From Crocosphaera subtropica ATCC 51142 (GTDB lineage: Bacteria; Cyanobacteriota; Cyanobacteriia; Cyanobacteriales; Microcystaceae): a stretch of 32,000 nt of DNA. The position numbers and the translations under genes are program-made. The notes beneath the pieces are model-generated. The model saw nothing but the letters and a program-made list of their open reading frames with translations, was not told where the DNA came from and searched no databases. Location of the stretch: positions 300,001 to 332,000 of the forward strand of contig NC_010546.1 in NCBI RefSeq assembly GCF_000017845.1, read 5' to 3'. Positions within the stretch are counted from its first letter, which is position 1. Every line of letters starts with the position of its first letter. Shown here in pieces: positions 633 to 23,865 of the stretch.

Positions 633-1475
633 TTATTCACCAGGAGCAATAACTTTTTGTAAGTAAGCAATTCCCCGATCAAGTAATAGTCCAACTGCCC
701 CGATATACACCACTGCCAAAATAATTTCACTGATGTAATTTTGTTGGTACGCATCCCAAATAAAGAAGCCAATACCTACAATTCCAGACATAACAATCTC
801 TGCTGCAATAATAGCTAACCAAGCTAACCCGATCGCAATTCTTAATCCTGTGAAAATGTAAGGTAAAGCAGAAGGAAGCAAAATCTTGAAAAAGAATTTT
901 TTGTTGGATAATTGTAAGACTTGCTGCACATTGATGTAATCTTGGGGAATTTGTTTTACTCCTTCAGTGGTATTAATTAAAATTGGCCACACTGCAGTAA
1001 TAAAGATAACAAAGATAGCGGCCGGTTGATTTTGTTGTAAGGCGACTAAAGCAATCGGAACCCAGGCTAAAGGTGCAACCATTCTTAAGAATTGAAATAA
1101 AGGATCTAAGGCTTTATTAATTAAGGGTTGTGTTCCCACTAAAATCCCCACACTAATTCCTATTAAAGCAGCTAAAGAATAACCTTGAGCAACCCTACCT
1201 AAACTCGCTAAAGTTTGCCAAAATAACCCTTTATCTAAACCACCCCGATCATAAAAAGGATACATTAATAAAATACGGGTTCGTTCATCAGTCCATAAGC
1301 TACTAGGAGGGGGTAATTTAATTAAACCAGTCATCGAAATCAATTGCCAAACTGCCAAAAAACCTAATACTCCAACGATAGGAGGCAATATTTCCCCTTT
1401 ATTTTTATCCCAAAAAGTTAGTAATGGGTTTTGATTTTTTACTCTGTTGGGACGCATTCTAGTAGTAGCTGTCAT
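633..1475 (-). CDS. cmpB: ABC transporter permease, NrtB/CmpB family
   Basis: 280-aa polytopic membrane protein located between the binding-protein gene and the ATPase gene on the same strand. The symbol depends on the CmpA call for the upstream gene. Confidence 0.8.
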   Translation of the reverse strand: MTATTRMRPNRVKNQNPLLTFWDKNKGEILPPIVGVLGFLAVWQLISMTGLIKLPPPSSLWTDERTRILLMYPFYDRGGLDKGLFWQTLASLGRVAQGYSLAALIGISVGILVGTQPLINKALDPLFQFLRMVAPLAWVPIALVALQQNQPAAIFVIFITAVWPILINTTEGVKQIPQDYINVQQVLQLSNKKFFFKILLPSALPYIFTGLRIAIGLAWLAIIAAEIVMSGIVGIGFFIWDAYQQNYISEIILAVVYIGAVGLLLDRGIAYLQKVIAPGE

Positions 1476-1514: not shown

Positions 1515-2876
1515 TTAAACTCGTTTGATAGTGAGACTATTTAAGTAAGCTTGTGGATTTTCGGGATCAAATGTAACTCCATCAAAGAAGGTTTCAACTC
1601 CCCTGGAGGTACTGGCAGGAATATCTGCTGTAAACCCTGCTTCTGTAGCAGCTTCTCTCCAAATATCCTCACGGTTAACTTTATCGATAATCTTTTGTGC
1701 AGTATCAAGATCGGATATTTGATCTTTATGGAAACCCCATCGTAATGTTTCAGTTAGGAACCAAAGATCGTGACTCTTATAAGGATAAGAAACGTTACCT
1801 TTGCCATCTTTCCAATACAACGGCCCCATATTTATGTCTTTAACTTCTGCTTTGCCATCACCCATTTTATAATTACCTTTATAGGGAGCATCTAAAATAT
1901 CAACGGGGACATTAAAGTAGTTTCTTCCTGCTAAAATTTTAACAGTGGCAGCCCGATTATTGTTCTGATCAATCCATTGTTGTGCCTCCATTAATCCCTT
2001 TAATAAGGCTTTTGTGGCTTTGGGATTTTTATCTACCCAGTCAGCACGAATAGCTAGGTATTCTTCAGGATGAAATTGCCAAATTTGTGAGGTTAAACCG
2101 GCCATATAACCAATATCTTCAGCAATGATACGATAAGGCCAAGGATCACCCGTACTAAATGCGTCCATTGTGCCGTTACGCATCCCTTGTACCGTCTCCG
2201 CAGGAGGAACAGCGAGTAAATCGATGTCAACGTCAGGATCGACCCCTCCGGCTGCGAACCAATACCGAATCCAGAAATCTTGGTTAACATTAGGGAAAGT
2301 ATGGGCGGCTTTGAACTTTCTTCCGTTGGTAGAAGCGAAATTTTTAATATAGTCCGCTGCTTGTGATATATCTAAAGAAACTCCTTTCCCTTCGTGCATC
2401 GGTGCAACAGCGATCCCATTGCCTTGGGTGTTCAACTGTGCTAGAACATACATAGGAACTTTGCGCCCGTTGGTAATGATTCCCTCGGTAATTAAGTGAG
2501 GCATGGGCATTTGCCACTGTCCCCCATCAATACCCCCACCTTGAGAACCAATGGTGACGTTATCCCTCGCAGAAGCCCAGTTTGCTTGCTTTGACAGTTC
2601 TACGTCTGTCATGCCATATTTAGCGAAAAATCCCTGTTCTTTGGCTACTACCAAGGCCGCAGCCTCTACAATGGGAATATACCCTAGTTTAATGGCAGTG
2701 GTTTCCGGTTGCATCTCCGGGCTGATATCCGCTACCCCTTGGGTGGTTGATGCATTAGTACCACCCGGTTCAGGAGGATTTCCTGCACATCCTTTGAGTA
2801 ATATTGCCCCAGCAGCAGATAAAGCGGAAGTACGTAGGAACTTACGACGGGTTACGGGAGAAAAATTAGACATCAA
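1515..2876 (-). CDS. cmpA: Periplasmic substrate-binding lipoprotein of the NrtA/CmpA family, probably bicarbonate-binding CmpA
   Basis: 453 aa. The N-terminus [21 protein letters not shown] is Tat/lipoprotein-like. The block [21 protein letters not shown] and the overall length match what I recall of CmpA rather than NrtA (GGIDGAH...). The CmpA-versus-NrtA choice is from memory, not a search. Confidence 0.8.
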
Positions 2877-3237
2877 AACCTCCTGCTGCCTATAGTTTCG
2901 ACAGAAAAAATAGTGATAAATAAAATTAATAAGAAAAACAAAAAGCTCTCATAAGCAAACGTTACAGCACTTTTATAATTTGTTTTTATCGCTGTTATTA
3001 CTTGAGCTTTTGAGTTAACTAATCGAGTCGCTTTGTTAACTTGATAAATCAGTTTAGCATCTTTGTTTTTAAAAAACTTATGTTTAAGCAAGTGAATGAT
3101 AAAAAATTTTTAATTTAGATGATAAGCATAGATTATTTATAATTTTAAAATACCATCTAATAGGTATTTATCTATATGCTTAGTATCGTTATCCCATCAT
3201 CATCAATATTCTGACCCCTGACTCGGAGACTCCCCAA

Positions 3238-3480
3238 CTAATTTTGGATTCTCTGTTGCTTCTCTACATACTCTTTAAACAGCCTAGGGTACATTATTAA
3301 GAAATAAACCCACCAAATCATCACCAAACTTGAAACAATAACTGTTATCCAAATAAGATTAAAAATAAACCAACTAGCAACACTGAACACTATTCCAGTT
3401 AATAAAATAGACCAAGGTTGACACCACCGAGGTTTGTAGTCCCAAATATTAGATGATTCTAAATTAGAAAAATCTGTCAT
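3238..3480 (-). CDS. Small integral membrane protein (two predicted TM helices), conserved hypothetical
   Basis: 80-aa ORF with two long hydrophobic stretches (ILLTGIVFSVASWFIFNLIWITVIVSSLVMIWWVYFLIM) and an ATG start. No catalytic motif. Confidence 0.55.
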   Translation of the reverse strand: MTDFSNLESSNIWDYKPRWCQPWSILLTGIVFSVASWFIFNLIWITVIVSSLVMIWWVYFLIMYPRLFKEYVEKQQRIQN

Positions 3481-3503
3481 GATAGGTTCCTCAATTATTA
3501 ATA

Positions 3504-3911
3504 TTAATTGCTAATTATTTTGGCTTCATTAATCCAAGTTTGTACTAGGTCAGGAGAAGGACATAAATCGTTCCGTTGTAATGTCGCAACTTGTAACTTA
3601 AGAATCTGTCGATGTAATGAACTAACGGAGGTTTCAGCTAACTGCTTCACTGATATAATTCCTGAGTGCAAAATCAACCCACAATAGTCACAGCCAACAC
3701 TAGGAACCCTAGCTAAATCAGCTAAAGCGACCCATTTACTAATTAATTGTAGTTGACATTTTAATCGATTGGCTAAATTTTGCTGATTGGTTTTAGTTTT
3801 AGTGATCTTGAGTAAATCTTGACTATTATTAATCCCTAACGACTTTAATTGTTCCTGGTGAGTTTGACTTAACCCTGGTAACTGTTCAATCTGCCAATAA
3901 GAAGATTTCAT
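3504..3911 (-). CDS. DUF4332-like protein
   Basis: Contains WQIEQLPGLSQTHQEQLKSLGI...KWVALADLARVPSVGCDYCGLILHSGI...LCPSPDLVQTWINEAK, typical of the cyanobacterial DUF4332 family as I recall it. I prefer the internal ATG at 3911 (MKSSYWQ) over the ORF-track start at 4001. Confidence 0.6.
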   Translation of the reverse strand: MKSSYWQIEQLPGLSQTHQEQLKSLGINNSQDLLKITKTKTNQQNLANRLKCQLQLISKWVALADLARVPSVGCDYCGLILHSGIISVKQLAETSVSSLHRQILKLQVATLQRNDLCPSPDLVQTWINEAKIISN

Positions 3912-4044
3912 ATAAATTTGATTTAAAATATAGCTATACCCACTTATCTTAATTAAAATTTCCAAATTGAAACCAGCGATCGCCTCTAAATTAGCTCCCA
4001 AACAAGGTAAGGTAAAAAGAGTGGGGTGATAAAACTAAACCATT

Positions 4045-6009
4045 ATGAACGCAACAAACGACATTATCATTATTGGCGGTGGAATTATTGGAATGGCGAT
4101 CGCAGTTGACTTAAAACTGCGGGGCGTATCGGTCACCGTTTGTAATCGTAGCTTCCCCCAAACCGCATCTATGGCTGCGGCCGGAATGTTAGCCCCCCAC
4201 GCTGAGGCATTACCCCCAGGTCCGTTACTGGACTTATGTTTAAAGTCTCGTTGGTTATATCCAGAATGGATACGAAAATTACAAGATATCACAGGATTAA
4301 ACCTTGGCTATAATCCTTGTGGTATTCTTGCCCCAGTCTATGATCTACCCACTGCTGATGTTCGCCACAATAACAAAGATCAGTGGTTGGATAAAACCGC
4401 TATTCGCCTTTACCAGCCAGGGTTAGGGGATGATGTGGTGGGAGGGTGGTGGTATCCTGAAGATGGCCAAGTGGATAACCGCCAAGTAATGCAAGCTTTA
4501 CGTCAAGCAGCCCAACAATTAGGGGTTACCGTTAGAGACGGTGTAACGGTTAAAACCCTACAGCAAAAACAGGGGAAAGTTACCAGTATTTTAACCAATC
4601 AAGGGGAATTAGAAGGCAACACCTACATTATTGCTAATGGTTCCTGGGCGAGTCAAATCCTACCCCTGCCCGTACGCCCGATGAAAGGGCAAATGTTAGC
4701 GGTGAAGATGCCTCATCCCCCCGATGAACCCTATCCCTTACAACGGGTTCTCTATGGACCCCAAACCTATTTAGTCCCCCGACAGAATGGACGTTTAATC
4801 ATCGGGGCTACTTCTGAGGATGTGGGTTGGACTCCCCATAACACCCCCCAAGGCATCGAAATGTTAATCAAACGGGCAACAAGATTGTATCCCGACGTGG
4901 CTAACTGGGAAATAGAGGAATTTTGGTGGGGCTATCGTCCAGGAACTCCAGATGAATTACCCCTATTGGGTCATTATGGTTGCAATAATTTAATTTTAGC
5001 CACTGGTCATTATCGTAACGGTATTTTACTAGCCCCAGTTACTGCATTTCTCATTGCAGACTTAGTCATTAATCAAAAAAGTGATCCCATATTAGACCAT
5101 TTTCAAGGCGATCGCTTCCACACTCAACCTTCTCCTCCTTCTGCCTCTATGACCCCATTTAACCATTATCCAGTTCCAAAAACCACGAACGGTCACAATG
5201 GAACCTCTAGCTTATCTCCAACCGATGAATTAGTGATCGCTGGCCGCAAGTTTCACTCACGGTTAATGACAGGAACCGGGAAATACCCCAGCATCCCTAT
5301 CATGCAGCAAAGTGTGGCCGCCAGTGAGTGTCAAATTGTCACCGTAGCGGTGAGACGAGTACAAACGAACGCCCCTGGCCACGAAGGGTTAGCTGAAGCT
5401 TTAGATTGGGGTAAGATTTGGATGTTACCCAACACCGCCGGCTGTAAAACTGCAGAAGAAGCTATCAGGGTGGCTAGGTTAGGGCGAGAAATGGCCAAAT
5501 TATTGGGACAAGAAGACAATAACTTTGTTAAGTTAGAAGTGATCCCCGATACAAAATACCTATTACCCGATCCCATCGGAACCCTAACAGCAGCCGAAAC
5601 ATTAGTTAAAGAAGGGTTTGCTGTTTTACCCTATATCAACGCTGATCCCATGTTAGCCAAACGGTTAGAAGAGGTAGGATGTGCAACAGTGATGCCGTTA
5701 GGATCGCCCATTGGTTCTGGCCAAGGGATTCGCACTCAAGCTAATATTGAGATTATTATCGAAGAAGCGCATATTCCTGTGGTGGTTGATGCTGGGATCG
5801 GAACCCCTAGTGAAGCCTCCCAAGCTATGGAAATGGGGGCCGATGCGGTGTTAATTAATAGTGCGATCGCTTTGGCTAAAAATCCTGTCTTGATGGCGAA
5901 AGCCATGGGAATGGCTACCGTTGCCGGAAGATTAGCCTATTTAAGTGGACGAATACCCATTAAAGATTATGCGATCGCTAGTTCTCCCCTAACGGGAACC
6001 GTTGTTTAA
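4045..6009 (+). CDS. thiG: Bifunctional glycine oxidase ThiO / thiazole synthase ThiG fusion
   Basis: 654 aa. N-terminal FAD Rossmann motif [14 protein letters not shown] with a DAO-type oxidase body. A low-complexity linker ([11 protein letters not shown]...) follows. The C-terminal ThiG-like TIM barrel has [40 protein letters not shown] and [11 protein letters not shown]. Confidence 0.88.
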
Positions 6010-6082: not shown

Positions 6083-6313
6083 TTAATCACGCCATTCTTC
6101 TTTACTCAATAAATCAATAATCGAATCTCTGAGAAGAAAATCATGTCTTTCTAGTTCGCATTCTACATTAGGCCATTCGCGGGCTGGAATATATTTGCAC
6201 AGAGTATAAATCGGTTGTCGTCGATGAAGTCTTCTTTCACGAACTAACCTAGCGGCCTCCCCTTTAATAACATCAATCGTGTATTGAGTAGGAGACTGAA
6301 TGACTTTAAGCAT
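6083..6313 (-). CDS. Small conserved cyanobacterial protein (DUF4327-like)
   Basis: 76 aa from the ATG at 6313 (MLKVIQSP...). The motif PIYTLCKYIPAREWPNVECELERHDFLLRD resembles the DUF4327 family as I remember it. The longer ORF-track start at 6349 is less likely. Confidence 0.5.
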   Translation of the reverse strand: MLKVIQSPTQYTIDVIKGEAARLVRERRLHRRQPIYTLCKYIPAREWPNVECELERHDFLLRDSIIDLLSKEEWRD

Positions 6314-6440
6314 AACGAACTTCCTCGCGGAGTTTGGTGGACATGACACAAATAATGACCCACTTCCTATTATCCGTTATAGAAGATACAGTCTCAACAA
6401 AAGAAAACAATTTTTAATGATAAAGGAAGAGATGCTATAA

Positions 6441-7076
6441 TTAGCTATTTTGCTTAACCATAGTTACAAAATTTGAAAGAATTTGTAATCCATTATCTGA
6501 TGATTTTTCAGGGTGAAATTGTACCGCCATCAGATTATCACGGGCGATCGCTGCTGTTACGGTTTGGCTACCATGAGTTACCACTGCAGCGTTCACGTTA
6601 GGATCAACCGGATCGACATAATAAGAATGGACAAAATAAACGTAAGGATCAGGGGTTAACCCTTGCCATAAGGATAGATTCGATTGAGTGAATTGTAACT
6701 GATTCCAACCCATGTGAGGGATGGTTAAATTAGGTTCAGACTGAAAACGACGCACCTTTCCTTTTATAATGCCTAAACCGGGTTCTTTGCCTTCTTCTGA
6801 CCCCTCGAAGAGAATTTGCAGGCCCAAACAAATACCTAAAAATGGCTTACCTGCTGCGATCGCTTGTTTAATCGGTTCCTCTAAATGACGCGATCGCAAA
6901 TGTTGCACCGCCGGATCGAACGATCCTACCCCCGGCAAAACGATCGCCTCTGCTTCTGCAATATCTTGGGGAGAATCCGTAATTTTTGGCTGAATTCCTG
7001 CTTTTTCTAACCCTTTACACGCAGAGTGCAGATTGCCCATGTCATAGTCAATAACAGCCAGGAAACCCATAAACAT
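6441..7076 (-). CDS. hisH: Imidazole glycerol phosphate synthase, glutamine amidotransferase subunit HisH
   Basis: 211 aa class-I amidotransferase with VIDYDMGNLHS, LPGVGSF, GICLGLQIL (catalytic Cys) and AVQFHPEKS (His/Glu). Confidence 0.92.
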   Translation of the reverse strand: MFMGFLAVIDYDMGNLHSACKGLEKAGIQPKITDSPQDIAEAEAIVLPGVGSFDPAVQHLRSRHLEEPIKQAIAAGKPFLGICLGLQILFEGSEEGKEPGLGIIKGKVRRFQSEPNLTIPHMGWNQLQFTQSNLSLWQGLTPDPYVYFVHSYYVDPVDPNVNAAVVTHGSQTVTAAIARDNLMAVQFHPEKSSDNGLQILSNFVTMVKQNS

Positions 7077-7133
7077 TCCTTGTGGTTAATATTTTCTATT
7101 TATTATAATAATTGATTTTTTGTTAACTACAAA

Positions 7134-8321
7134 TTAATTTATTCCAAAAGAATTTTCTAAGGCTTCTAAAACCACATCCGTGACTATTTTAGTCCGATAA
7201 CGACAAGCTTGGGTTTCGGTTGAATTAAAACTATCATTTTCCCAATATTTATTACTTCCTGCCCCTCCTCCACAGACTCCAAAATAATCACAACTTTGAC
7301 GACAACTATTAACTCCTTCTAACATATCCTTATAAATTTGTTTGAATTTTTTACTATCACAAACCGATTCTAAACTATCGGTTAAAACATTTCCTAAAAT
7401 AAAGTTACCGTAAGGTTTAATATCAACTGATAATAATTCAGGATCAAAGGTGGAAAAATTACCTAAATAATCAATATTTAAAATAGCAAAAGGATGATTC
7501 ATATCTGTTTTTGATAATCTTTGGTTATCACAAATTAAACCACAAATTGCCTCAAATTCTCGTACTTTAAACTGATCGTTAGTTTGGCTAGTTAATTCCC
7601 AGAATTGCTTAATAAACTGATAATATTTTTTTTCTGTTCCAACTTTATCTAAAGAAGATGTTTCATTAATTCCTTCTATTTCTTCCATATTAAAAGCGAC
7701 ATCAGTAATGCCATTTTCCCAGAAGAAGTTAAACATTTCATCGGCATAATCTAGAGATTCTTGGGTAATAACAGCAATAATATTAAAATAAATGTCATTT
7801 TCTTGTAAATAACGAATTCCTCTCATTACACTTTCATGGGTTCCTAAACCTGTGGGTGTTTTACGATGAGTATTATGTAAAAAATCAGGGCCATCAATAC
7901 TGACTCCTACACAAATATTATTTTCTTTAAAAAAATCACACCAAGCTTGATTAATTAAAATCCCATTCGTTTGAATTGAATGATAAATAGGAACTTGTTT
8001 AATATTGTATTTTTGATTAGCGATGTCAATTCTTTTAAAGACTTCTTGATAATAAGAAATTGGCACAGCTAACGGTTCTCCTGCGTGCCAACAAATATCA
8101 ATAAATTCTCCTACAAAGGGACTGGTAAAAATAGCTTTAAAAATGGGTTCAATTAAATCAAGAGATAATTTTTCTTTTAAATTGCGATTCGGTAAATAAC
8201 AATAATCACAATCAAGATTACAAAACGGAGTCGGTTGAATAACCACTAAATTAATCGGACCAAACGATGAAACATCAATAGACCCGTTTTCATTGCTATT
8301 GATAGATAAATGTGTTGTCAT
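7134..8321 (-). CDS. grrM: Radical SAM/SPASM peptide maturase, GRRM-system / cyclophane-forming GrrM(OscB)-like
   Basis: 395 aa. CxxxCxxC motif CNLDCDYC at residues about 34-41. C-terminal Cys-rich SPASM region CRQSCDYFGVCGGGAGSNKY...TQACRY. Lies immediately downstream of two Gly-rich-repeat precursor ORFs on the same strand. Confidence 0.85.
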   Translation of the reverse strand: MTTHLSINSNENGSIDVSSFGPINLVVIQPTPFCNLDCDYCYLPNRNLKEKLSLDLIEPIFKAIFTSPFVGEFIDICWHAGEPLAVPISYYQEVFKRIDIANQKYNIKQVPIYHSIQTNGILINQAWCDFFKENNICVGVSIDGPDFLHNTHRKTPTGLGTHESVMRGIRYLQENDIYFNIIAVITQESLDYADEMFNFFWENGITDVAFNMEEIEGINETSSLDKVGTEKKYYQFIKQFWELTSQTNDQFKVREFEAICGLICDNQRLSKTDMNHPFAILNIDYLGNFSTFDPELLSVDIKPYGNFILGNVLTDSLESVCDSKKFKQIYKDMLEGVNSCRQSCDYFGVCGGGAGSNKYWENDSFNSTETQACRYRTKIVTDVVLEALENSFGIN

Positions 8322-8429
8322 TTTTCACCTTATATTTAATTCTAAAAAGTTACTAAAGACTGAATTAATATGTTTTTTCCTCTGCTTATCTCAACTCATA
8401 ATCTCTATGATTAATAAAAAACATTGATA

Positions 8430-8828
8430 TTACCACCGATTAATAAACCCACCATTTCGCCAAGGACTACGGTTATAAAACCCCCCCCTATCACCCCAAG
8501 GACGACCATTAACAAAACCCCCACCATTCCGCCAAGGGTTACGGTTAACAAACCCTCCACCGCCATGACGATTGGCAAAGCCACCTCGATATCCATTACC
8601 CCAACTGCCTCCTCGGCCATTACCCCAACCTAATCCGATTAAATCATTATTTGTCTCAGGTGCGATATCAATCCCTCTTTGTTGTATGGCTTCTGTTAAG
8701 CGAGATAGACGACTTTCTATAGTTAAGTTATTATCGGATAAAAGAGCCTGACTTTTTGCTATAGAAGCAGTCAAAGTAGACACCGCTAATAGAAATCCGA
8801 CACAAGTAATTTTTGTTGTAATCTGCAA
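8430..8828 (-). CDS. grrA: Gly-rich repeat RiPP precursor (GrrA/OscA-like), paralog 1
   Basis: 132 aa. Signal-peptide-like N-terminus, leader helix IESRLSRLTEAIQQRG, then the core GWGNGRGGSWGNGYRGGFANRHGGGGFVNRNPWRNGGGFVNGRPWGDRGGFYNRSPWRNGGFINRW. TTG start at 8828 preceded by AGGAG with an 8-nt spacer. The N-terminus is homologous to paralog 2. Confidence 0.8.
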   Translation of the reverse strand: MQITTKITCVGFLLAVSTLTASIAKSQALLSDNNLTIESRLSRLTEAIQQRGIDIAPETNNDLIGLGWGNGRGGSWGNGYRGGFANRHGGGGFVNRNPWRNGGGFVNGRPWGDRGGFYNRSPWRNGGFINRW

Positions 8829-8895
8829 AATAAATTCTCCTAAAACTCAATCATAAATTTTCAAATAACATCATAACAAATAACGCTTTCATCAA

Positions 8896-9252
8896 TTAAT
8901 AACGATTGTAAAAACTTCCACCATTTGGCCAAGGACTTCGGTTAACAAAACCACCACCTCCACCCCGATTAACAAAACCACCACCTCCACCACCGCGATT
9001 GGCGAAACCACCGCCTCCACTACGATTGGCAAATCCTCTGGTTAATAAGTTTTCCGCTTCTGTGGGTAAACTATTCGTTGTTTCAATGTCTCCCTTTTCT
9101 ATTGCTTTAGTAATGCGAGATAAGCGATATTCAATATTATTAGAAACCTTAGCATTGATTGGTTTTTGGGAATTAGCTGTTGCTACGGAAACACTCAAAG
9201 TTGAGACAGCTAACAAGAAACCCATAAAAGTGATTTTATTAGTAATTATCAC
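8896..9252 (-). CDS. grrA: Gly-rich repeat RiPP precursor (GrrA/OscA-like), paralog 2
   Basis: 118 aa. Signal-peptide-like N-terminus MIITNKITFMGFLLAVSTLSVSVATANS, leader IEYRLSRITKAIEKGD, core GFANRSGGGGFANRGGGGGGFVNRGGGGGFVNRSPWPNGGSFYNRY. GTG start at 9252; an internal ATG at codon 10 is the alternative. Confidence 0.78.
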   Translation of the reverse strand: MIITNKITFMGFLLAVSTLSVSVATANSQKPINAKVSNNIEYRLSRITKAIEKGDIETTNSLPTEAENLLTRGFANRSGGGGFANRGGGGGGFVNRGGGGGFVNRSPWPNGGSFYNRY

Positions 9253-9403
9253 AATATTTACCCCTATTCTACAATTCTGTTGAGAACTCTAGCAAAAAAT
9301 AGACTTTAATGGCTATTATTGTTAAATTTATTTACCTTTTCTTTACAAATTGACTAAAATAAGTAACAATTCTACTGTTTCTTTCTGTATAAAAGGAAAA
9401 ATT

Positions 9404-10297
9404 ATGTATAAAAAAATGCCTTTAGTTGCTTTAAGTTTAATGGCTATGTTAACTTTACCTAATAAAAGTTTAGCAGAAACAGTTATAGAAAGGGTTGCAA
9501 GAACAGGAGTCTTAAATGTTAGCACAAGAGTAGATTTAGTACCCTATGCTTACGTTAACGACGAAGATGAATTAGTGGGTTATTCCGTAGAACTGATCGA
9601 ATTAATTCGAGAAACCCTTGCTCAAGAAATCGGAAAAGATGTTCAAATTAAAGTCATTGTTGATGATAGTTTAGACGAAAGAATTAGCAGTTTGCTTAAT
9701 CGAGAAGTTGATATTGCTTGTGATACAACTTTTACCTGGCAAAGAGATAGATTTGTAGATTTTTCCTTAGCTTATGGGGTTTCTGGTATTAAAGTTTTTG
9801 TCAAAGAAGATAGTAATTTATCCTCTCCCGACTCTTTTAAAAATAAACGCATTGCTATTATAGAAAGTGTGCTGAGTCCTGAATCAATTAAAGTCATTGA
9901 ATCTCAAGTTACTGTTGTTGATGTTGATAGTATAGAAGCAGGAATTAAAGCAGTGGAAGATGGAGAAGTGGATGGATTTGCCTTTGACGGCACCATTTTA
10001 GAAGGAACACGACAAACTTTAACTAATCCGAATGCTTATAAAGTAGTTCCCGATGAATCTTATTTTAAACATGGCATTGCTTGTATGGTTCCCGAACAAG
10101 ATTCCACGTTTTTAAACTTAGTTAATTTGACCATTGGTAAACTGATGGACGGTTATATTCGGGGTGATTCTCGTTATGTAGAAATGGTTAATCGTTACTT
10201 TGGAGAAGAGGGTATTGTTCCCTTTGAACCAGCAAGAATTAAAGACTTTTTTGAGATAATAATTATTACTCGTGAACAAATTCCCCCTGAACAATAA
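9404..10297 (+). CDS. Periplasmic solute-binding protein (family 3, amino-acid-type SBP), orphan
   Basis: Start at ATG 9404 (MYKKMPLVALSLMAMLTLPNKSLA, signal peptide). The mature part has the PBPb-like pattern GVLNVSTRVDLVPYAYVNDEDELVGYSVEL...DIACDTTFT...RFVDFSLAY. No permease or ATPase genes are adjacent. Confidence 0.7.
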   Translation: MYKKMPLVALSLMAMLTLPNKSLAETVIERVARTGVLNVSTRVDLVPYAYVNDEDELVGYSVELIELIRETLAQEIGKDVQIKVIVDDSLDERISSLLNREVDIACDTTFTWQRDRFVDFSLAYGVSGIKVFVKEDSNLSSPDSFKNKRIAIIESVLSPESIKVIESQVTVVDVDSIEAGIKAVEDGEVDGFAFDGTILEGTRQTLTNPNAYKVVPDESYFKHGIACMVPEQDSTFLNLVNLTIGKLMDGYIRGDSRYVEMVNRYFGEEGIVPFEPARIKDFFEIIIITREQIPPEQ

Positions 10298-10298
10298 T

Positions 10299-11078
10299 TT
10301 AATTCTCAGGAAACTTTTTGTCTCGAACATCTTGAGAAAAATCACTAACTGCTTTAGTAACAATGTCTCTTAAATTGAGATAAGTTTTAGCAAAAGGAGG
10401 CTGTTTTTCAGATAATCCTAATAAATCTGCCGTTACTAATACCTGTCCATCACAATCAGACCCTGCACCAATGCCAATAGTTGGAATCGGTAACTTTGCC
10501 GTGATTATTCTAGCAAGGTTAGCTGGAATATGTTCTAAAACCACAGCAAACGCCCCCGCCTCTGATAAAGCGATCGCTTCTGATAAAATACGTTCAGCCT
10601 CGCTTTCAGTGGTTCCTTGTTGACGATACCCCAAACGATGCACCGACTGAGGCGTTAACCCCACATGACCCATCACAGGAATACCAATATCACTTAAACG
10701 GGCAACGGTTTCGATGGCTGTAGGGTGTCCCCCTTCGAGTTTAACGGCTTGTACCCCTGTTTCTTTTAAAACCCGTCCTGCAGCATGAATCGCTTGACTG
10801 ATGCTTTCTTGATAACTAAGAAAGGGTAAATCACACACCACTAAAGCCCGTTTAACGCCTCGACGAACGGCGGCCGCATGGTGTGACATGGCATCGAGGG
10901 TAAGGGGTAAAGTGGTTTCGTACCCTAAAGCAACCATGGCCAACGAATCACCCACCAAAATAATATCAATACCGGCTGCGTCTAATAATTGAGCAAAAGC
11001 GAAATCCCAAGCTGTTAACGCCACAATAGGACGGCCTTGTTGTTTCCAGGTAATCAATTGTTGCGTTGTTAGTCCCAT
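10299..11078 (-). CDS. panB: 3-methyl-2-oxobutanoate hydroxymethyltransferase PanB
   Basis: [45 protein letters not shown] and GHVGLTPQS are PanB hallmarks. I prefer ATG 11078 (MGLTTQQL) over the TTG at 11099 used by the ORF track. Confidence 0.9.
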
Positions 11079-15215: not shown

Positions 15216-15297
15216 GCGGATGTGGTGGAATCGGTAGACACGCACGCTTGAGGGGCGTGTGGCTCACGCCATGCGAGTTCAAGTCTCGCCATCCGCA
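15216..15297 (+). tRNA. tRNA-Leu (anticodon GAG), class II with long variable arm
   Basis: Manual fold. Acceptor GCGGATG/CATCCGC plus discriminator A. D arm GTG..CAC. Anticodon stem CACGC/GCGTG with loop TTGAGGG (anticodon GAG). Long variable arm. T arm GCGAG TTCAAGT CTCGC. No intron and no encoded CCA. Confidence 0.9.
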
Positions 15298-15719: not shown

Positions 15720-15810
15720 AACTTTATTGTTGTTTGTCCTTCAAACAAAGCAATCTAGAGAGTTAATTAAGAAAACTCTCTTTCATTTCCAGGTGTGAGG
15801 ATTGATTTTA

Positions 15811-17571
15811 ATGCTGAAACTTTTGTTAACCCAGACCGTATCTCCTGTCATTATCGGTCTATTTTTCGCCACACAACCAGCGATCGCTTCTACTGATAGA
15901 AACGAAAACTTGGATATCGTTGCTCCGACAGAAGCTTTAGAGATTATTCGTAACCGTCCCCAGTTACAAACCCCGTTGAATCGGGATACTTCCAAACAAT
16001 TTAAGGACGCAGGCAGTCAACCGTCTATGTCTCAAGTTACCAATGTTGGGGAGTTGCGGGATATTTCTCCTACAGACTGGGCTTATGAAGCCTTACGCAG
16101 CTTAGTAGAACGCTATGGTTGTATTGTCGGTTATCCCGATCGCACCTTTCGAGGAAATCGGGCTTTAAGTCGTTGGGAGTTTGCTGCTGGTTTAAATGCC
16201 TGTCTCAATACGATTGAACGACTGATCCAGGAAAATGTGGCTGTTTTACGGGAAGATATCGAGAAATTAAAACGGTTGGCACAGGAATTTGAACAAGAAT
16301 TAATCGCCTTGGGTGCCAGAGTCAGTAATCTTGAAGAAAGAGTTGCTTTTCTAGAAGATCATCAATTTTCTACCACTACCAAGTTAAACGGAGAAGTCAT
16401 TATTACCATCTCCGATGCTTGGGGAGAAAGGGCCTTAGATTTTCGGGAACAAGACTTATTCAATCAAGGGTTACTCGAAAGACGACGAATTGATGACAAT
16501 GGAGTGATCGGTCATCGAAGCCGTTATAACTTCGATACCAGCTTTACCGGGGAAGACTTACTGAAAACCCGTTTTGAAAGTGGTACTATCGTTAATTGGT
16601 CAGACCCCACCGGCACTGAAATGGCCCGTCTTGGTCATGATTCTGACAGTGGTAGTGATACCTTTATCGATGACGTTTACTATCGCTTTCCTATTGGCAA
16701 CTTAACCACTTGGGTAGGGGCTAACTCCTTAGATATTGACGACATTTTTGATGTGGGCAACCCTCTCTTATTTGCTGAAGAATCTGGAGCTTTATCCCGT
16801 TTCATTCGCTATAACCCCATTACCTTCCGTGGTCCCGAAGGAAAAGGCATTGGTATTAACTATGCTTTCAATGATGTCTTTATTCTCAGAGGACTCTATC
16901 TGAGTGATACTGCTAATGATCCGTCTCTGGGCAATGGTTTATTCAACGGGAATTACAGTACCGGGGCGCAATTAGGGGTTTATCCCACTGATGCCCTTAG
17001 TTTCACCTTTACCTATCTGCACTCGTACTTTGCAGCCGGCAACTCTGATGTTTCTTCAAGTACCGGTAGTTATGTCGAACCCGATAATCAAACCCCTCAA
17101 ACCGGCCAAGGTATTGCCAAAGATCCCTTCTTAGGGGCCCCAACCATTCGAGATAGTTATGGGATTACAGGAAACTGGCGGATTAATGAAACCTTTAACT
17201 TCTCCGCTTGGGGTGGTTATGCTTTAGCCCGCGCCCAAGGTTTAGATGCTGAGGGGAATAGTCGCAAAGGGTTTGGGTCCGATGTTTGGGCTTGGAGTGC
17301 CTCGTTATCTATGGTTGATATTGGTAAAGAAGGGGCTGTTTTAAGTATTGCTGGCGGTTCTATTACTAATAGTCGACGGATTGATGCCATTACAGGAGAT
17401 TTAACGGTTCCTGACCAAGATACCCCTTATATTATTGAAACTCAATATCGTTATCCCTTGAACGATAATATTTTGTTAACGCCTGGAGTGTTTGTTATTC
17501 TGCAACCAGATGGCAATAACGAAAACAACAGTATTTGGGTAGGTGCATTGCGAACCACATTTACTTTCTAA
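15811..17571 (+). CDS. Outer-membrane porin, SLH domain + OprB-family beta-barrel (cyanobacterial iron-uptake-porin type)
   Basis: Signal peptide MLKLLLTQTVSPVIIGLFFATQPAIA. SLH motif DISPTDWAYEALRSLVERYGCIVGYPDRTFRGNRALSRWEFAAGLNACL. A coiled-coil linker, then a long beta-rich domain ending in ...GALRTTFTF. ATG at 15811 preferred over TTG at 15802. Confidence 0.85.
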   Translation: MLKLLLTQTVSPVIIGLFFATQPAIASTDRNENLDIVAPTEALEIIRNRPQLQTPLNRDTSKQFKDAGSQPSMSQVTNVGELRDISPTDWAYEALRSLVERYGCIVGYPDRTFRGNRALSRWEFAAGLNACLNTIERLIQENVAVLREDIEKLKRLAQEFEQELIALGARVSNLEERVAFLEDHQFSTTTKLNGEVIITISDAWGERALDFREQDLFNQGLLERRRIDDNGVIGHRSRYNFDTSFTGEDLLKTRFESGTIVNWSDPTGTEMARLGHDSDSGSDTFIDDVYYRFPIGNLTTWVGANSLDIDDIFDVGNPLLFAEESGALSRFIRYNPITFRGPEGKGIGINYAFNDVFILRGLYLSDTANDPSLGNGLFNGNYSTGAQLGVYPTDALSFTFTYLHSYFAAGNSDVSSSTGSYVEPDNQTPQTGQGIAKDPFLGAPTIRDSYGITGNWRINETFNFSAWGGYALARAQGLDAEGNSRKGFGSDVWAWSASLSMVDIGKEGAVLSIAGGSITNSRRIDAITGDLTVPDQDTPYIIETQYRYPLNDNILLTPGVFVILQPDGNNENNSIWVGALRTTFTF

Positions 17572-19466: not shown

Positions 19467-22166
19467 GTGATGAGTAATAACAATGATCAATATTTGTGTA
19501 AAAAGCAGATAGTTTTGACTGGTCTTAACCTAATTATCCTAAAACACTTAAGCTTTTTTTCCGTAGCTTCTGCACAAGTTTTTGAAGATGGGACTGTCAA
19601 TACTCAAGTTACTTCAACGAATAATCAGCTAGTGATTAGTGGAGGAACTGAAAAAGGGAATAATTTATTTCATAGTTTTGAGCAGTTTTCTATTCCCAAT
19701 AACATCGAAGCTTATTTTAATAATTCTGATAATATCAATAACATTATTAGCCGTGTCACAGGAAACTCTATTTCCAACATTGAGGGAATAATTAGAGCAA
19801 ATGGTACGGCAAATTTACTTTTAATTAATCCTAATGGTATTACTTTCGGTCCCAATAGTCAAATTAATATTGGGGGTTCTTTTTTAGCGACAACTGCTGA
19901 GAATATAACTTTTGCTGATGGGGTGCAATTTGGTGCTATTAACGCACAACCAAACTCTCTATTAACCATGAGTGTTCCTGTTGGATTACAATTTGGGTCA
20001 AATCCAAGCCCAATTAGAAATCAAGGAAATATTTTGGGGATTAAGCCTGGTAATACCCTTGCCTTAGTTGGGGGAGATTTGATTTTTTCTGGTAGTAATT
20101 TATTAGTTTCAGATTTACAAGTAGAATTAGGAAGCGTTGGCAGTCATAGTAACGTTCAAATTAGAAATAATGAGGCAGGATTTCAAGTAGGTTATCAAAC
20201 AGTCAAGAATTTTCAAGATATTTCATTATCCCAAGAATCACAACTTGTTGCGTTCAATTCAACTTTTAATTTACAAGGACGACATATCACACTAGATCAA
20301 AGCATAATTGTTAGTGTTACTCAAGGCTCTCAAGTAGCAGGAGATATTAATGTTAACGCTTCAAAATCCGTTGAGCTTATTGGCCTGAAAAATTCTGAGT
20401 TTACAACTGGTTTTTTAGCTCAAGTCGAAGAAGGAGCAACAGGTAGAGGTGGTAATTTATTGATCAATACTCAAAAATTAATCATTCAAGATGGTGCTGG
20501 TTTATCAGCAGGATCTAGGGGAGAGGGACAAGCAGGAACTTTAATGATTAATGCTTCTGAATTAGTTGAATTGACTGGAACAGGTTTTTTTAGTCCAAGT
20601 CTTCTAACTACCTCTACTGATAGTTTAGGAGATGGGGGAGAAATTGAAATTAATACTAAGCAATTAATTATAAGAGATGGAGGGAGTATAGAAGCATTTA
20701 CCCTTGGTAATGGTCAAGGAGGTACTATCACCATTAATGCTTCTGAATTAGTCCAAATCAGTGGCAGTGGAATAATTGGGGCGACGCAAACCGAAACTTC
20801 TAGTCAAATTACTACCAGTTCTGGTTTACAAGATGTAGGTTTAGGAATCGCACCTGGAGGTAATCTAAGTATCAATACTGAGCAATTGAAGGTTACGAAT
20901 GGTGGTATTGTTAATGCAGGAAGTTTAGGCTCAGGCAACGCAGGAAACGTTAATATTAGGGCTAATTCAATCTTTTTGGATAATCAAGGAATTATTACGG
21001 CATCTTCTGAAGGAACGGGAAATGCTGGAAACTTAACCATTAATACGGATCAATTAACGGTCAATGAACGCTCAGAAGTAGCTGTGAGAAGCATCGGAAC
21101 CGGTGAAGGAGGTAATTTAACCCTCAATGCACAATCTATTTCTTTGGATGACAAAAGTAGACTCACTGCTACCAGTGAAGCATTAGATCCTGAAATTGCC
21201 CTAGAATTAGGACTTGATCCAGAAGTTTTAGAATTAGATAATGGTTTAGCCAATGCAGGGAGTTTAAACATTACCACCGATAATCTCAGGGTTAATGATG
21301 ATTCAGAAGTAACCGTTAGCAGTTTTGGGTTAGGCAATGCCGGGGATATTAATATAAGAGCAACGGATATTCTTTTAGATAATAGTAGTCGCTTATCCGC
21401 CGAAACAGCATCGGGAGAAGGAGGAAATATTAGCCTTGATGTGGCTCAATTTTTAACACTACGTCGTGGTAGTACCCTTTCTACTACCGCAGGAACCACA
21501 GGAGGACTAGGAAACGGAGGAAACATTGATATTAATGCCCTATTTATCATTGCTGTTCCCACGGAAAACAGTGATATTATTGCCAATGCTTTTTTAGGTC
21601 GTGGGGGTAATATTAATATCGATGCTGCGGGAGTTTTTGGGATCGAAGAACGGGAAAGATTAACCCCGTTGAGCGATATCACCGCCAGTTCTCAATTTGG
21701 TCAAGTAGGAAATATCGGTATTAACCGTCCTGATGTTGATCCCCAACGAAGCTTAGTTAAACTGCCTGACGAAGTAGTAGACACCAATAACGTAATAGTG
21801 GATGCTTGTCGTCCCGGTGGGGCTTTAACCAGAGGGGAATTTACCATTACAGGACGGGGTGGGTTACCATCTAATCCCAATGAAGGAGTAGACAACCCCA
21901 CAGGATTAACTGAATTAGGTTATCCTACTAATACTGATTCATCGAATTTTGTACCTTCGGAGCAAAATCGTTCTTCTCCTGCCCCTGAAGTCTATACCAA
22001 TCAAAACGAGACATACACACCCACCATTGTCGAAGCACAAGGATGGATTATTAATGCTGATGGTAATGTAGTGCTAACAGCACAAGCTTCCACTGTGACT
22101 CCTCACAGTCCTGGTTTAAGCCCTGCTACCTGTTATGATTTGTCAAACCGTAACTCGTCTCCCTAA
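19467..22166 (+). CDS. Two-partner secretion exoprotein (TpsA) with filamentous-haemagglutinin N-terminal (TPS) domain and beta-helix repeats
   Basis: Signal peptide ...FFSVASA|QV. TPS-domain motifs NLFHSFEQFSI, NIISRVTG, LLLINPNGITFGP and GGSFLATT. Many G(N/E)(A/G)GN(L/V/I)x(I/L)N beta-helix repeats. C-terminal GEFTITGRGGLPSNP ... EAQGWIINADGNVVLTAQ. GTG 19467 or ATG 19470 as the start. Confidence 0.85.
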   Translation: MMSNNNDQYLCKKQIVLTGLNLIILKHLSFFSVASAQVFEDGTVNTQVTSTNNQLVISGGTEKGNNLFHSFEQFSIPNNIEAYFNNSDNINNIISRVTGNSISNIEGIIRANGTANLLLINPNGITFGPNSQINIGGSFLATTAENITFADGVQFGAINAQPNSLLTMSVPVGLQFGSNPSPIRNQGNILGIKPGNTLALVGGDLIFSGSNLLVSDLQVELGSVGSHSNVQIRNNEAGFQVGYQTVKNFQDISLSQESQLVAFNSTFNLQGRHITLDQSIIVSVTQGSQVAGDINVNASKSVELIGLKNSEFTTGFLAQVEEGATGRGGNLLINTQKLIIQDGAGLSAGSRGEGQAGTLMINASELVELTGTGFFSPSLLTTSTDSLGDGGEIEINTKQLIIRDGGSIEAFTLGNGQGGTITINASELVQISGSGIIGATQTETSSQITTSSGLQDVGLGIAPGGNLSINTEQLKVTNGGIVNAGSLGSGNAGNVNIRANSIFLDNQGIITASSEGTGNAGNLTINTDQLTVNERSEVAVRSIGTGEGGNLTLNAQSISLDDKSRLTATSEALDPEIALELGLDPEVLELDNGLANAGSLNITTDNLRVNDDSEVTVSSFGLGNAGDINIRATDILLDNSSRLSAETASGEGGNISLDVAQFLTLRRGSTLSTTAGTTGGLGNGGNIDINALFIIAVPTENSDIIANAFLGRGGNINIDAAGVFGIEERERLTPLSDITASSQFGQVGNIGINRPDVDPQRSLVKLPDEVVDTNNVIVDACRPGGALTRGEFTITGRGGLPSNPNEGVDNPTGLTELGYPTNTDSSNFVPSEQNRSSPAPEVYTNQNETYTPTIVEAQGWIINADGNVVLTAQASTVTPHSPGLSPATCYDLSNRNSSP

Positions 22167-23865
22167 CCTATTGTGTTGTTCTTTTTGTTTTTTGTGCTTA
22201 AGTGGTGGGTTTACTGCTAAATTAACGGCGCAATCTTTTGATAATAGTCCCATTCCTCCTACTTCTGTCCCTGAGTTACCTCAACCTGTTCCTTTACCGG
22301 AAACTCCGTTAAAGCCTCCTACTGTTTCTCCTGTCCCTACAGAAGAAGTATCTCCCAATATTCCAGGAACGATTACCGTTAAGCAGTTTCGTTTTGAAGG
22401 AAACACCGCTTTTGACACAGAAGAATTAACCAAAGTTATTGAGGGGTTTATTGATCGCCCTTTGACCTTTGCGGAGTTATTACAAGCGAGATCGGCTATT
22501 ACTCAGTATTATATTGATCGGGGTTATGTCACCTCTGGGGCTTATATTCCTCCCCAAACCATCGAAAATGGCATTGTTGCCATTAAAATTGTTGAGGGGC
22601 AATTAGAAGATATTCAAGTTACCGTTGAAGGAAAACTCAATCCTAATTATGTACGCGATCGCTTAGGGTTAGGGGGACAAACTCCATTAAATATCCCTCG
22701 CTTAGTGGAGTCTTTACAACTGCTACAATTAAACCCTGTTATTGATAGTATTTCGGCCGAATTAACCCCCAGTCCCCGTCCGGGTAATAATATTTTAGTG
22801 GTTAATGTTGTCTCGGCCCGTTCTTTTTATCCGAGTTTGATTTTTGATAATGGTCGTAACCCCCAAGTAGGAGAAATTCGTCGGGGGTTTAATTTAGCTG
22901 AAAGGAATTTATTAGGTCTTGGTGATAAAGCAGAGTTTAGCTATTTTAATACGGATGCCAGTGACGATGTAGAAGTAACTTATCAAGTTCCTGTTAATGT
23001 TTATAATGGCACGATTGAAGTAGGCTATAGAAGTTTAACCGGAGAAATTATTGAGGAACCTTTAGATATTTTAGACATTAATTCTGATTATCAAAAATAT
23101 TCTCTTCGCTTTCGACAACCAATTATTCAAACCCCCTCACAAGAATTGACGTTAGGATTAGATATTGATCATCAAAAGAGTAAAACCCTTTATTTAGATG
23201 GCCTGGCTTTTCCTTCTAGGGGTTCTGATACTAATGGAAGAACCCATATTTCTACGATTCGATTTTCTCAAGAATGGGTAGGAAGATCAGCAACGCAAGT
23301 ATTATCAGCAAGGTCAGAATTTGATTGGGGAATTGAAGCCTTTGGAACAACTATACCCTTTGATTTACAGGTAAATCCTGATGCTCCTTATAGTAACTAT
23401 TTTTTATGGCGAGGACAAGCACAATGGGTTAAATTATTGGCGGACGATACTTTATTTGTCTTGAGAAGTGATATGCAGTTTGCAGATCGGCCTATCGTTT
23501 CTTTAGAACAATTTTCGTTAGGGGGAATCGGAAATGTTAAAGGATATCGCCAAAATTCGTTATTAACAGATAATGGTATTTTTGCAGGAATGGAGTTACG
23601 TTTTCCTGTTTATCGTCTTCCTAAAGATAGGTTTGTGGTACAGATTGTTCCTTTTTTAAACTATGGTCAAGGATGGAATAGTGGGGAAGAACCTGATCCC
23701 CCGATTAATGAATTAGCTTCTGTTGGTGTCGGTTTACAAGTTCAATATGGTGATTTTTTTAATGCTCGTCTTGACTGGGCCAACCGATTAGGAAAGGAAC
23801 TATTTCAAGGCGGTGATTCTTTACAGGATGATGGATTTTTTTTTACTATTACTATTAGTCCGTAA
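22135..23865 (+). CDS. ShlB/FhaC/HecB-family outer-membrane TpsB translocator (POTRA + beta-barrel)
   Basis: 576 aa with a signal peptide and a Pro-rich linker. POTRA-like ITVKQFRFEGNTAFDTEELTKVI... and IKIVEGQLEDIQV. Beta-barrel with GGIGNVKGYRQN. Overlaps the tpsA 3' end by 32 nt. Confidence 0.85.
   Translation: MICQTVTRLPNLLCCSFCFLCLSGGFTAKLTAQSFDNSPIPPTSVPELPQPVPLPETPLKPPTVSPVPTEEVSPNIPGTITVKQFRFEGNTAFDTEELTKVIEGFIDRPLTFAELLQARSAITQYYIDRGYVTSGAYIPPQTIENGIVAIKIVEGQLEDIQVTVEGKLNPNYVRDRLGLGGQTPLNIPRLVESLQLLQLNPVIDSISAELTPSPRPGNNILVVNVVSARSFYPSLIFDNGRNPQVGEIRRGFNLAERNLLGLGDKAEFSYFNTDASDDVEVTYQVPVNVYNGTIEVGYRSLTGEIIEEPLDILDINSDYQKYSLRFRQPIIQTPSQELTLGLDIDHQKSKTLYLDGLAFPSRGSDTNGRTHISTIRFSQEWVGRSATQVLSARSEFDWGIEAFGTTIPFDLQVNPDAPYSNYFLWRGQAQWVKLLADDTLFVLRSDMQFADRPIVSLEQFSLGGIGNVKGYRQNSLLTDNGIFAGMELRFPVYRLPKDRFVVQIVPFLNYGQGWNSGEEPDPPINELASVGVGLQVQYGDFFNARLDWANRLGKELFQGGDSLQDDGFFFTITISP

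Follow-up and report, generated by a model that had tools for sequence, protein, structure and literature searches.

A complete GRRM system for predicted triceptide-type peptide maturation in Crocosphaera subtropica ATCC 51142

Based on profile searches, a structure model and a survey of related loci, we assign four adjacent genes of Crocosphaera subtropica ATCC 51142 to a complete GRRM system, i.e. a cluster for a peptide that is made on ribosomes and then post-translationally modified (RiPP), of the triceptide type. The genes lie in a 32,000-nucleotide stretch of contig NC_010546.1 (positions 300,001 to 332,000; hereafter the window, within which all positions are counted). On the minus strand, grrM (7134..8321; 395 residues, ATG start) encodes a radical S-adenosylmethionine (rSAM)/SPASM peptide maturase of the three-residue cyclophane-forming type, and is preceded on the same strand by two precursor genes, grrA2 (8430..8828; 132 residues, TTG start) at a distance of 108 bp and grrA1 (8896..9252; 118 residues, GTG start) at 575 bp. 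The fourth gene, grrP (9350..10297, plus strand), is divergently transcribed and encodes an orphan extracellular substrate-binding-like protein. An earlier note on this DNA had located the three minus-strand open reading frames (ORFs) correctly, while the span that it claimed left out grrP. The system as such is already known: the family is curated in NCBIfam, its chemistry has been worked out on the homologue OscB, and proteins orthologous at approximately 90% identity are correctly named, so that a single further instance carries little weight. For the biological role of this three-family module, which is kept across nearly all cyanobacterial lineages, the locus and its relatives offer concrete handles, namely a Sec signal predicted on practically every precursor, the lack of a protease or exporter belonging to the system, the co-duplication of grrP with grrA, and the amino-acid-anchoring residues kept in GrrP. 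Beyond the earlier note, the present analysis adds grrP, the phylum-wide conservation, the near-universality of the Sec-type signal, the co-duplication of the P and A genes, and the finding that neither a protease nor an exporter is conserved with the locus.

By their sequences, all four proteins are assigned to families with scores above the curated cutoffs, membership being defined as an NCBIfam whole-protein hidden Markov model (HMM) score at or above the cutoff. GrrM scores 631.4 bits on the GrrM/OscB model TIGR04261 (cutoff 310, E=4e-190), its residues 28-390 covering profile positions 1-363 of 363. On the GrrA/OscA1 model TIGR04260 (cutoff 31), GrrA2 reaches 132.2 bits and GrrA1 114.3 bits, the latter over profile positions 1-118 of 118. 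GrrP obtains 243.1 bits on TIGR04262 (cutoff 190) through residues 53-312, which align with profile positions 1-256 of 257. The GRRM assignment had been put forward in the earlier note together with such a check against NCBIfam, and the check, now run, supports it for the maturase and for both precursors. The note had also named what would speak against it, a maturase below the cutoff or one of sulfatase type; neither was found, as GrrM remains at 176.1 bits on the anaerobic sulfatase maturase model TIGR03942 (cutoff 349.45). The models of related maturases likewise stay below their cutoffs on GrrM, i.e. AmcB (NF041718, 293.6 versus 425), YhhB (145 versus 445), DynA (142 versus 450), FxsB (102 versus 370) and XyeB (67 versus 450). 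The Pfam Radical_SAM model matches GrrM with 61.4 bits (cutoff 29.5), and the CX3CX2C motif expected to hold the [4Fe-4S] cluster can be read directly as CNLDCDYC at residues 34-41 (8199..8222, minus strand), where the earlier note had seen it near the N-terminus; its cysteines, Cys34, Cys38 and Cys41, are invariant in 57 homologues. The closest database proteins are 86-93% identical to GrrM, those of Crocosphaera reaching 90-93%, and the named relatives, at about 90% identity or below, are from Crocosphaera spp. and labelled GrrM/OscB.

The two precursors are paralogues, as had been noted before, with 48% identity over 127 residues (E=3e-30). Their cores are rich in the motif on which enzymes that form three-residue cyclophanes (3-CyFEs) act. 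In the GrrA1 core (residues 74-118; 8899..9033, minus strand), every one of the six Phe/Trp residues is followed by Asn at position +2, against a shuffle mean of 0.73 and with none of 20,000 shuffles reaching six. In the GrrA2 core (residues 68-132; 8433..8627, minus strand), Asn or Asp occupies this position after 10 of the 11 Phe/Trp residues (shuffle mean 1.74; 0/20,000 shuffles reach 10). The resulting motifs, which we take as predicted cyclophane sites, are at residues 74, 83, 93, 102, 108 and 114 of GrrA1 and at residues 68, 76, 84, 93, 99, 105, 111, 117, 123 and 128 of GrrA2. At the DNA level, the cores appear as a tandem repeat with a period of 27-30 bp in grrA1 and as an imperfect 36-bp tandem repeat in grrA2. 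The repeat had been described as G-G-(F/W)-x-N-R; the recurrence of aromatic-x-N holds, but the unit is really (F/W)-x-(N/D)-(R/G), with W-G-D seen once and ...N-G several times. Similarly, the statement that the C-terminal halves are almost entirely Gly was too strong, the Gly content of the cores being 34-38%. Judged from sequence, one feature of the triceptide class is in place, i.e. Omega1-X2-X3 motifs in the core of leader-bearing precursors that adjoin an rSAM gene. Among 92 precursors of the family, we counted 430 FxN, 216 WxN, 79 WxD and 12 FxD motifs, which are exactly the residue pairs cross-linked by OscB (PMC11002830; PMC11499958).

Outside the core, the 92 family precursors share a constant layout, consisting of a signal-peptide-like N-terminus, a variable spacer, a helix, a short junction (often L-I-A-R-G) and the repeat core. 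The helix, of the type I-E-x-R-L-x-R-I-x-x-x-L, is found in 86 of the 92, including GrrA1 (IEYRLSRITKAIEKG, residues 40-54; 9091..9135, minus strand) and GrrA2 (IESRLSRLTEAIQQRG, residues 37-52; 8673..8720, minus strand), and constitutes the family leader motif. It is likely the element recognized by the maturase. GrrM has no N-terminal RiPP precursor recognition element (RRE) domain, its rSAM core beginning at residue 28, and the cyclophane synthase ChlB binds its leader directly (PDB 9gm3). Leader-dependent cyclization by 3-CyFEs is known, as far as the titles of studies cited in PMC11851443 indicate. The non-ATG starts of both precursor genes are credible because Shine-Dalgarno-like AGGAG/AGGGG sequences lie 8-9 nt ahead of them, the N-termini are homologous, and the HMM alignment runs from profile position 1. 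We note that Pro-rich plus-strand ORFs of 59-94 residues (8424-8633, 8572-8751 and 8999-9283) lie antisense to the Gly-rich cores; these are mechanical shadows of GGN codons rather than genes.

To assess conservation, the ORFs of 80 related genomic loci were clustered, and the family counts are given over 81 loci; linkage was counted with a more sensitive search over the 69 loci in which the sequence upstream of grrM exceeds 2.5 kb. Homologues of the 9350-10297 ORF occur in 54/81 loci, and no other family occurs in more than 11/81. In the linkage counts, grrP is present in 59/69 loci and precursor genes lie immediately upstream of grrM on the same strand in 64/69. The pairing spans Gloeobacterales (locus L015), Pseudanabaenaceae, picocyanobacteria, Nostocales, Oscillatoriales and Chroococcales. 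The usual arrangement is a co-directional grrP-grrA(n)-grrM (48 loci), relative to which grrP of C. subtropica is inverted; inverted grrP genes are found in eight loci, mostly of the Crocosphaera clade. The two closest genomes share the order chlM-panB-grrP-grrA1-grrA2-grrM-hisH, with identities of 92-93% for GrrM, 92-95% for GrrP, 62-91% for GrrA2 and 72-74% for GrrA1; hence the precursors evolve fastest. Departures from the common pattern are seen as well: two divergent precursors (L050, 5512-5844; L062, 7178-7507) have acidic W-x-D or F-x-D cores (WGDWGDWVDW..., FGDFADS...) with little Gly or Arg, and L062 has its precursor downstream of the maturase.

In four Synechococcus/Cyanobium-type loci (L063, L067, L069 and L070; at approximately positions 2500-6000), the order is grrP-grrA-grrP-grrA-grrM. 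Within these duplicated loci, the two GrrP copies are 43% identical and the two GrrA copies 47%, while orthologues between genomes share 83-92%. We read this as an old duplication of the P-A unit as a whole, which suggests a one-to-one relationship in which every GrrP has a GrrA of its own to work with. One of the four loci, L067 (contig CALRJP020000004.1), is titled as a 'Rhizobium sp. Q54' metagenome-assembled genome (MAG); its GRRM locus and that of Synechococcus sp. BO 8801 (L070) are 83-92% identical, and the contig is probably a mis-binned or mislabelled cyanobacterial one.

We propose that the system operates as follows, and consider it highly probable that its overall course comprises cyclophane formation in the cytoplasm, export by Sec and a periplasmic fate involving GrrP. 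Cytoplasmic GrrM would bind the conserved leader helix of each GrrA. By homology to OscB, a 5'-deoxyadenosyl radical would then take a hydrogen from Cbeta of the Asn or Asp at position 3 of (F/W)-x-(N/D), and the carbon radical would be joined to the aromatic ring, either at Trp C7 or as a Phe paracyclophane. At -2 Da for each three-residue cyclophane, GrrA1 could acquire up to six (-12 Da) and GrrA2 up to 10 (-20 Da). Modification is placed in the cytoplasm and before translocation because GrrM, which has no hydrophobic N-terminus, is devoid of a signal peptide and depends on SAM as well as on Fe-S clusters in the reduced state. The modified precursors would be exported by Sec and trimmed by signal peptidase I, and then be released to the periplasm or the medium as proteins of ~90-105 residues, consisting of leader and poly-cyclophane core. 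There, as the conserved gene linkage suggests, GrrP may serve as receptor, chaperone or carrier, acting on the exported product or together with it.

Several observations weigh against this reading. The cross-links in GrrA, including their number and ring positions, are extrapolated from OscB, and the cleavage of the GrrA signal peptides is predicted by simple rules. Sec export of RiPP precursors has been proven experimentally only for bufferins, and such signals are described as 'highly unusual' (PMC12452194). Two Crocosphaera MAGs (L003 and L004) keep grrA1-grrA2-grrM-hisH with no grrP within 5 kb upstream (of position 5175), so that grrP is either elsewhere in these genomes or lost. The Arg and Asp anchors kept in GrrP would suit a small, amino-acid-like ligand better than a peptide of 100 residues. 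Finally, expression signals gave no support in positions 6900-10400: a promoter scan was at chance (16 sites versus 14.9 expected), and a terminator scan returned one site versus 2.2 expected, on the wrong strand and inside grrM.

The role of GrrP is the weakest link of the proposed pathway. The grrP ORF opens at TTG 9350, but the true start is likely ATG 9404, followed by a predicted signal peptide, MYKKMPLVALSLMAMLTLPNKSLA (9404..9475, plus strand), with cleavage before ETV; this prediction is drawn from the AETV.E..ARTG block, which is conserved after the signal peptide in 65 GrrPs. The Pfam SBP_bac_3 model matches with 66.9 bits, and the closest PDB entry is the Glu/Asp-binding protein (DEBP; 2ia4/2vha, E=8e-16). 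GrrP resembles family-3 binding proteins such as DEBP/GltI (2VHA), GlnH and ArtJ, and their non-transport relatives, the N-domain of MltF and the VFT domains of BvgS, with which it shares the SBP_bac_3 signature and the Arg/Asp anchors; it keeps the Cys pair of DEBP as well. It differs from them in lacking a cognate permease or ATPase, in its family-specific FTWxR motif, in a C-terminal extension of ~45 residues and in its genetic association with a RiPP precursor. The grrP gene is flanked by panB and grrA1, the related loci have no transporter family in common, whether ATP-binding cassette (ABC) permease or ATPase, and the only permease in the window (633-1475) adjoins a binding protein of the NMT1_2 family, ~8 kb from grrP. 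A literature search on GrrP, GrrA or the TIGR accessions returned unrelated homonyms only.

GrrP is proposed to handle exported GrrA because of the gene linkage and the co-duplication of the grrP-grrA module. Taken further, the GRRM products could be Sec-exported, poly-cyclophane proteins of ~90-105 residues, rich in Gly, Arg and aromatic residues and paired with GrrP as ligand and receptor or as cargo and chaperone, rather than small diffusible products; we advance this as a tentative possibility. If true, GRRM would represent an ancient, phylum-wide envelope or signalling module, extending from Gloeobacterales to picocyanobacteria, and not a sporadic antibiotic cluster. The most serious alternative, which we regard as doubtful, is that GrrP does not bind the GrrA product at all, being merely a syntenic amino-acid-binding protein, for transport or signalling, or else a sensor of a small ligand that regulates the system. 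The Arg of FTWxR and the Asp of gD..L.g, at least 90% conserved in the 65 GrrPs, align with R97 and D182 of DEBP, which we take to be the anchors of the amino-acid carboxylate and ammonium group, and this fits a small ligand, as do the two MAGs without an adjacent grrP. On the other hand, the DEBP residues for side-chain specificity, e.g. H164 and the G-T-T loop of lobe 2, are not conserved in GrrP, a conserved permease or ATPase is absent nearby, the linkage is seen in 59/69 loci from all over the phylum, and grrP has been duplicated together with grrA in four loci.

Export of the precursors is the second point at which the proposed pathway may be questioned. Simple rules predict Sec signal peptides at residues 1-28 of GrrA2 (MQITTKITCVGFLLAVSTLTASIAKSQA, cleaved before LL; 8745..8828, minus strand) and at residues 1-26/28 of GrrA1 (...SVSVATA, cleaved before NS; 9169..9252, minus strand). 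In GrrA2, a hydrophobic 11-mer with a Kyte-Doolittle (KD) value of 2.34 precedes an AxA-type site, and the predicted signal peptidase I sites are SQA/LL in GrrA2 and ATA/NS or ANS/Q in GrrA1. Applied to the family as a criterion, a hydrophobic 11-mer with KD of at least 1.6 is present in 91/92 precursors and is followed by a small-x-small [AVS]x[AG] site in 86/92. By this measure, the Sec-type signal is a near-universal, family-wide trait of GrrA. The earlier note had called the product secreted; the signal-peptide features are indeed present in both precursors, with secretion itself following from them by inference.

It is unlikely, in our judgement, that the hydrophobic N-terminus of GrrA instead serves as an uncleaved anchor or as a part of the leader recognized by GrrM, which would leave the product cell-associated or cytoplasmic. 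This alternative draws on the rarity of Sec signals on RiPP precursors (PMC12452194). It also gains from the simple sequence rules behind the signal call in GrrA. Work with heterologous OscA was reportedly done in the E. coli cytoplasm, which we counted in its favour. Against it stand the canonical n-h-c layout of the GrrA N-termini, with Lys/Arg near the start, a hydrophobic stretch of at least 11 residues and small residues at -3/-1 (ATA/N, SQA/L), the retention of this layout in 86-91 of the 92 members despite sequence divergence, and a linked partner, GrrP, that is itself a predicted signal-peptide protein. Precedent for the preferred route, i.e. cyclization followed by Sec export, exists in the bufferins and oxazolins, RiPPs modified by MNIO enzymes that combine a long precursor with a Sec-type signal instead of a dedicated exporter (PMC12452194); in these, as proposed here, modification must precede export and the product is periplasmic (PMC12452194). 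They differ from GRRM in the MNIO enzyme with its DUF2063 partner, in Cys-derived heterocycles, in copper binding and in the absence of a binding-protein partner.

ORF clustering of the related loci revealed no protease or exporter family conserved with the locus. The only predictable cleavage site in the precursors is that of signal peptidase I, ~40 residues upstream of the core, whereas in characterized triceptides the cut falls immediately ahead of the first motif (PMC12912966). With neither a protease nor an exporter in the system, exported GrrA may keep its leader of ~40 residues. Two candidates elsewhere in the window were considered and rejected, an S8 subtilase (28984-30762) as a processing partner and a TpsA/TpsB pair (19467-23865) as an export partner; they are 10-20 kb distant, and the families conserved with the locus include neither proteases nor transporters.

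As to the chemistry, OscB links Trp C7 to Cbeta of Asn or Asp, and makes a paracyclophane by joining Phe to the Cbeta of Asn (PMC11002830, citing Nguyen et al., Nat Chem 2020; PMC11499958). The linkage of an aromatic ring carbon to the Cbeta of residue i+2 that was cited in the earlier note is what experiments showed for this homologue (PMC11002830). The system described here resembles OscB/OscA of Oscillatoriales in that enzyme and precursors belong to the same NCBIfam families, both above cutoff, in its Gly-rich multi-motif substrates with FxN, WxN and WxD, and in the position of the precursor upstream of the maturase. In contrast to OscB/OscA, it occurs in a unicellular Crocosphaera-type host and has two paralogous precursors with 6 + 10 sites. 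Purushothaman et al. (ACS Chem Biol 2024) are said, going by their title, to have found that OscB gives a uniform topology on diverse Gly-rich precursors.

We regard it as quite improbable that GrrM modifies GrrA with another chemistry or topology than OscB, i.e. at another ring carbon, through C-N or C-O links, or at some sites only. Ring position and topology do vary among 3-CyFEs, XncB using Trp C6, OscB Trp C7 and WprB joining Trp C5 to Arg Cgamma (PMC11002830; PMC11851443). The next best model for GrrM is that of AmcB (294 bits), and the likeness to OscB is judged from the shared TIGR04261 model and the substrate motifs. Yet the match of GrrM to the NCBI model named for OscB is full-length, and the substrate motifs FxN, WxN and WxD are the same.

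More broadly, GrrM shares with XncB/XyeB, MscB/FxsB, YhhB, AmcB and ChlB the combination of an rSAM domain with a C-terminal Cys-rich domain and, presumably, a leader-dependent action on Omega1-X2-X3. It is set apart from XyeB, FxsB, YhhB and AmcB by the failure of their NCBIfam models to reach cutoff. The precursors of these other 3-CyFEs are short and not Gly-rich, and to our knowledge they carry no Sec signals. ChlB, unlike GrrM, is fused to an alpha-ketoglutarate (alphaKG)-HExxH domain. A confident AlphaFold2 model of GrrM (mean pLDDT 86.3, pTM 0.87) superposes over its full length on its best structural matches, leader-bound ChlB (TMq 0.77-0.78) and the anaerobic sulfatase-maturating enzyme (anSME; TMq 0.74).

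That GrrM is instead an anSME or another non-cyclophane SPASM enzyme, with the Gly-rich ORFs as unrelated neighbours, can for practical purposes be dismissed: anSME is its best PDB sequence match (E=1e-27) and a near structural match, and some older database names of GrrM homologues read 'arylsulfatase regulator', but the HMM cutoffs effectively refute this assignment (176 bits versus 349 on TIGR03942, as opposed to 631 on GrrM/OscB), no sulfatase gene is present in the window, and precursor and maturase stay adjacent in 64/69 loci.

The comparison with anSMEcpe (PDB 4K36-4K39), the closest solved sequence homologue, is instructive for the C-terminal domain. Both enzymes share the barrel and a C-terminal cluster domain; the anSME HMM fails on GrrM, the Aux-I ligands C255/C261/C276 and C330 are unmatched, and reaction and substrate differ. 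In GrrM, the Cys-rich tail seen in the earlier note (CRQSCDYFGVCGGGAG...ACRY) is present and carries Cys340, Cys344, Cys350 and Cys373, arranged as Cys340-x3-Cys344-x5-Cys350...Cys373 (7203..7304, minus strand) and invariant in the 57 homologues. Cys340, Cys344 and Cys350 align with the anSME Aux-II ligands C317, C320 and C326, while the fourth cysteine of the canonical CX2CX5CX3C motif (C330 in anSME) corresponds to Ala354, inside an invariant GGGAG. None of the anSME Aux-I ligands C255, C261 and C276 aligns with a cysteine of GrrM. Conversely, the family-specific cysteines Cys77, Cys128 and Cys260 do not vary among the 57 homologues, and Cys321 is kept in at least 90% of them; together these might form a second auxiliary cluster. 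The Pfam SPASM model scores 15.8 bits, under its cutoff of 21.5. As the SPASM match is sub-threshold and canonical ligands are replaced, the auxiliary-cluster architecture of GrrM may be non-canonical.

The system is embedded among housekeeping genes, i.e. hisH, panB, chlM and genes for a PP2C phosphatase, an ABC1 kinase and a ThiO fusion. Over positions 7000-10000, the G+C content of the GRRM genes is 0.30-0.36, versus 0.41-0.47 in the flanking housekeeping genes. RNA folding of the four intergenic spacers (z -0.9 to +0.6) revealed no attenuator-like hairpin between precursor and enzyme genes, and an Rfam scan of the whole window returned a tRNA-Leu only. On the same strand, hisH (6441-7076) begins 57 bp downstream of the grrM stop (gap 7077-7133), with no terminator-like hairpin in between, and the grrM-hisH adjacency is kept in L001-L004. 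Hence, it is possible that hisH is co-transcribed with the cluster.

Two small conserved proteins are encoded near the locus, with DUF4327 (6083-6349, minus strand; 101 bits) and DUF4332 (3504-4001, minus strand; 111 bits); neither is among the gene families common to the related loci. A plus-strand gene at 4045-6009 encodes a 654-residue protein that matches glycine oxidase ThiO (380 bits) over residues 7-344 and ends in a C-terminal extension of ~260 residues; presumably, this is a ThiO-ThiG fusion. Further downstream on the plus strand, the tRNA-Leu(GAG) gene (15216-15297) is followed by a gene for an OprB-family porin with an N-terminal S-layer homology (SLH) domain (15802-17571). A two-partner secretion (TPS) pair, also on the plus strand, comprises an 899-residue TPS-domain protein (19467-22166) and a ShlB/FhaC-type POTRA transporter (22135-23865), the two ORFs overlapping by 32 nt.

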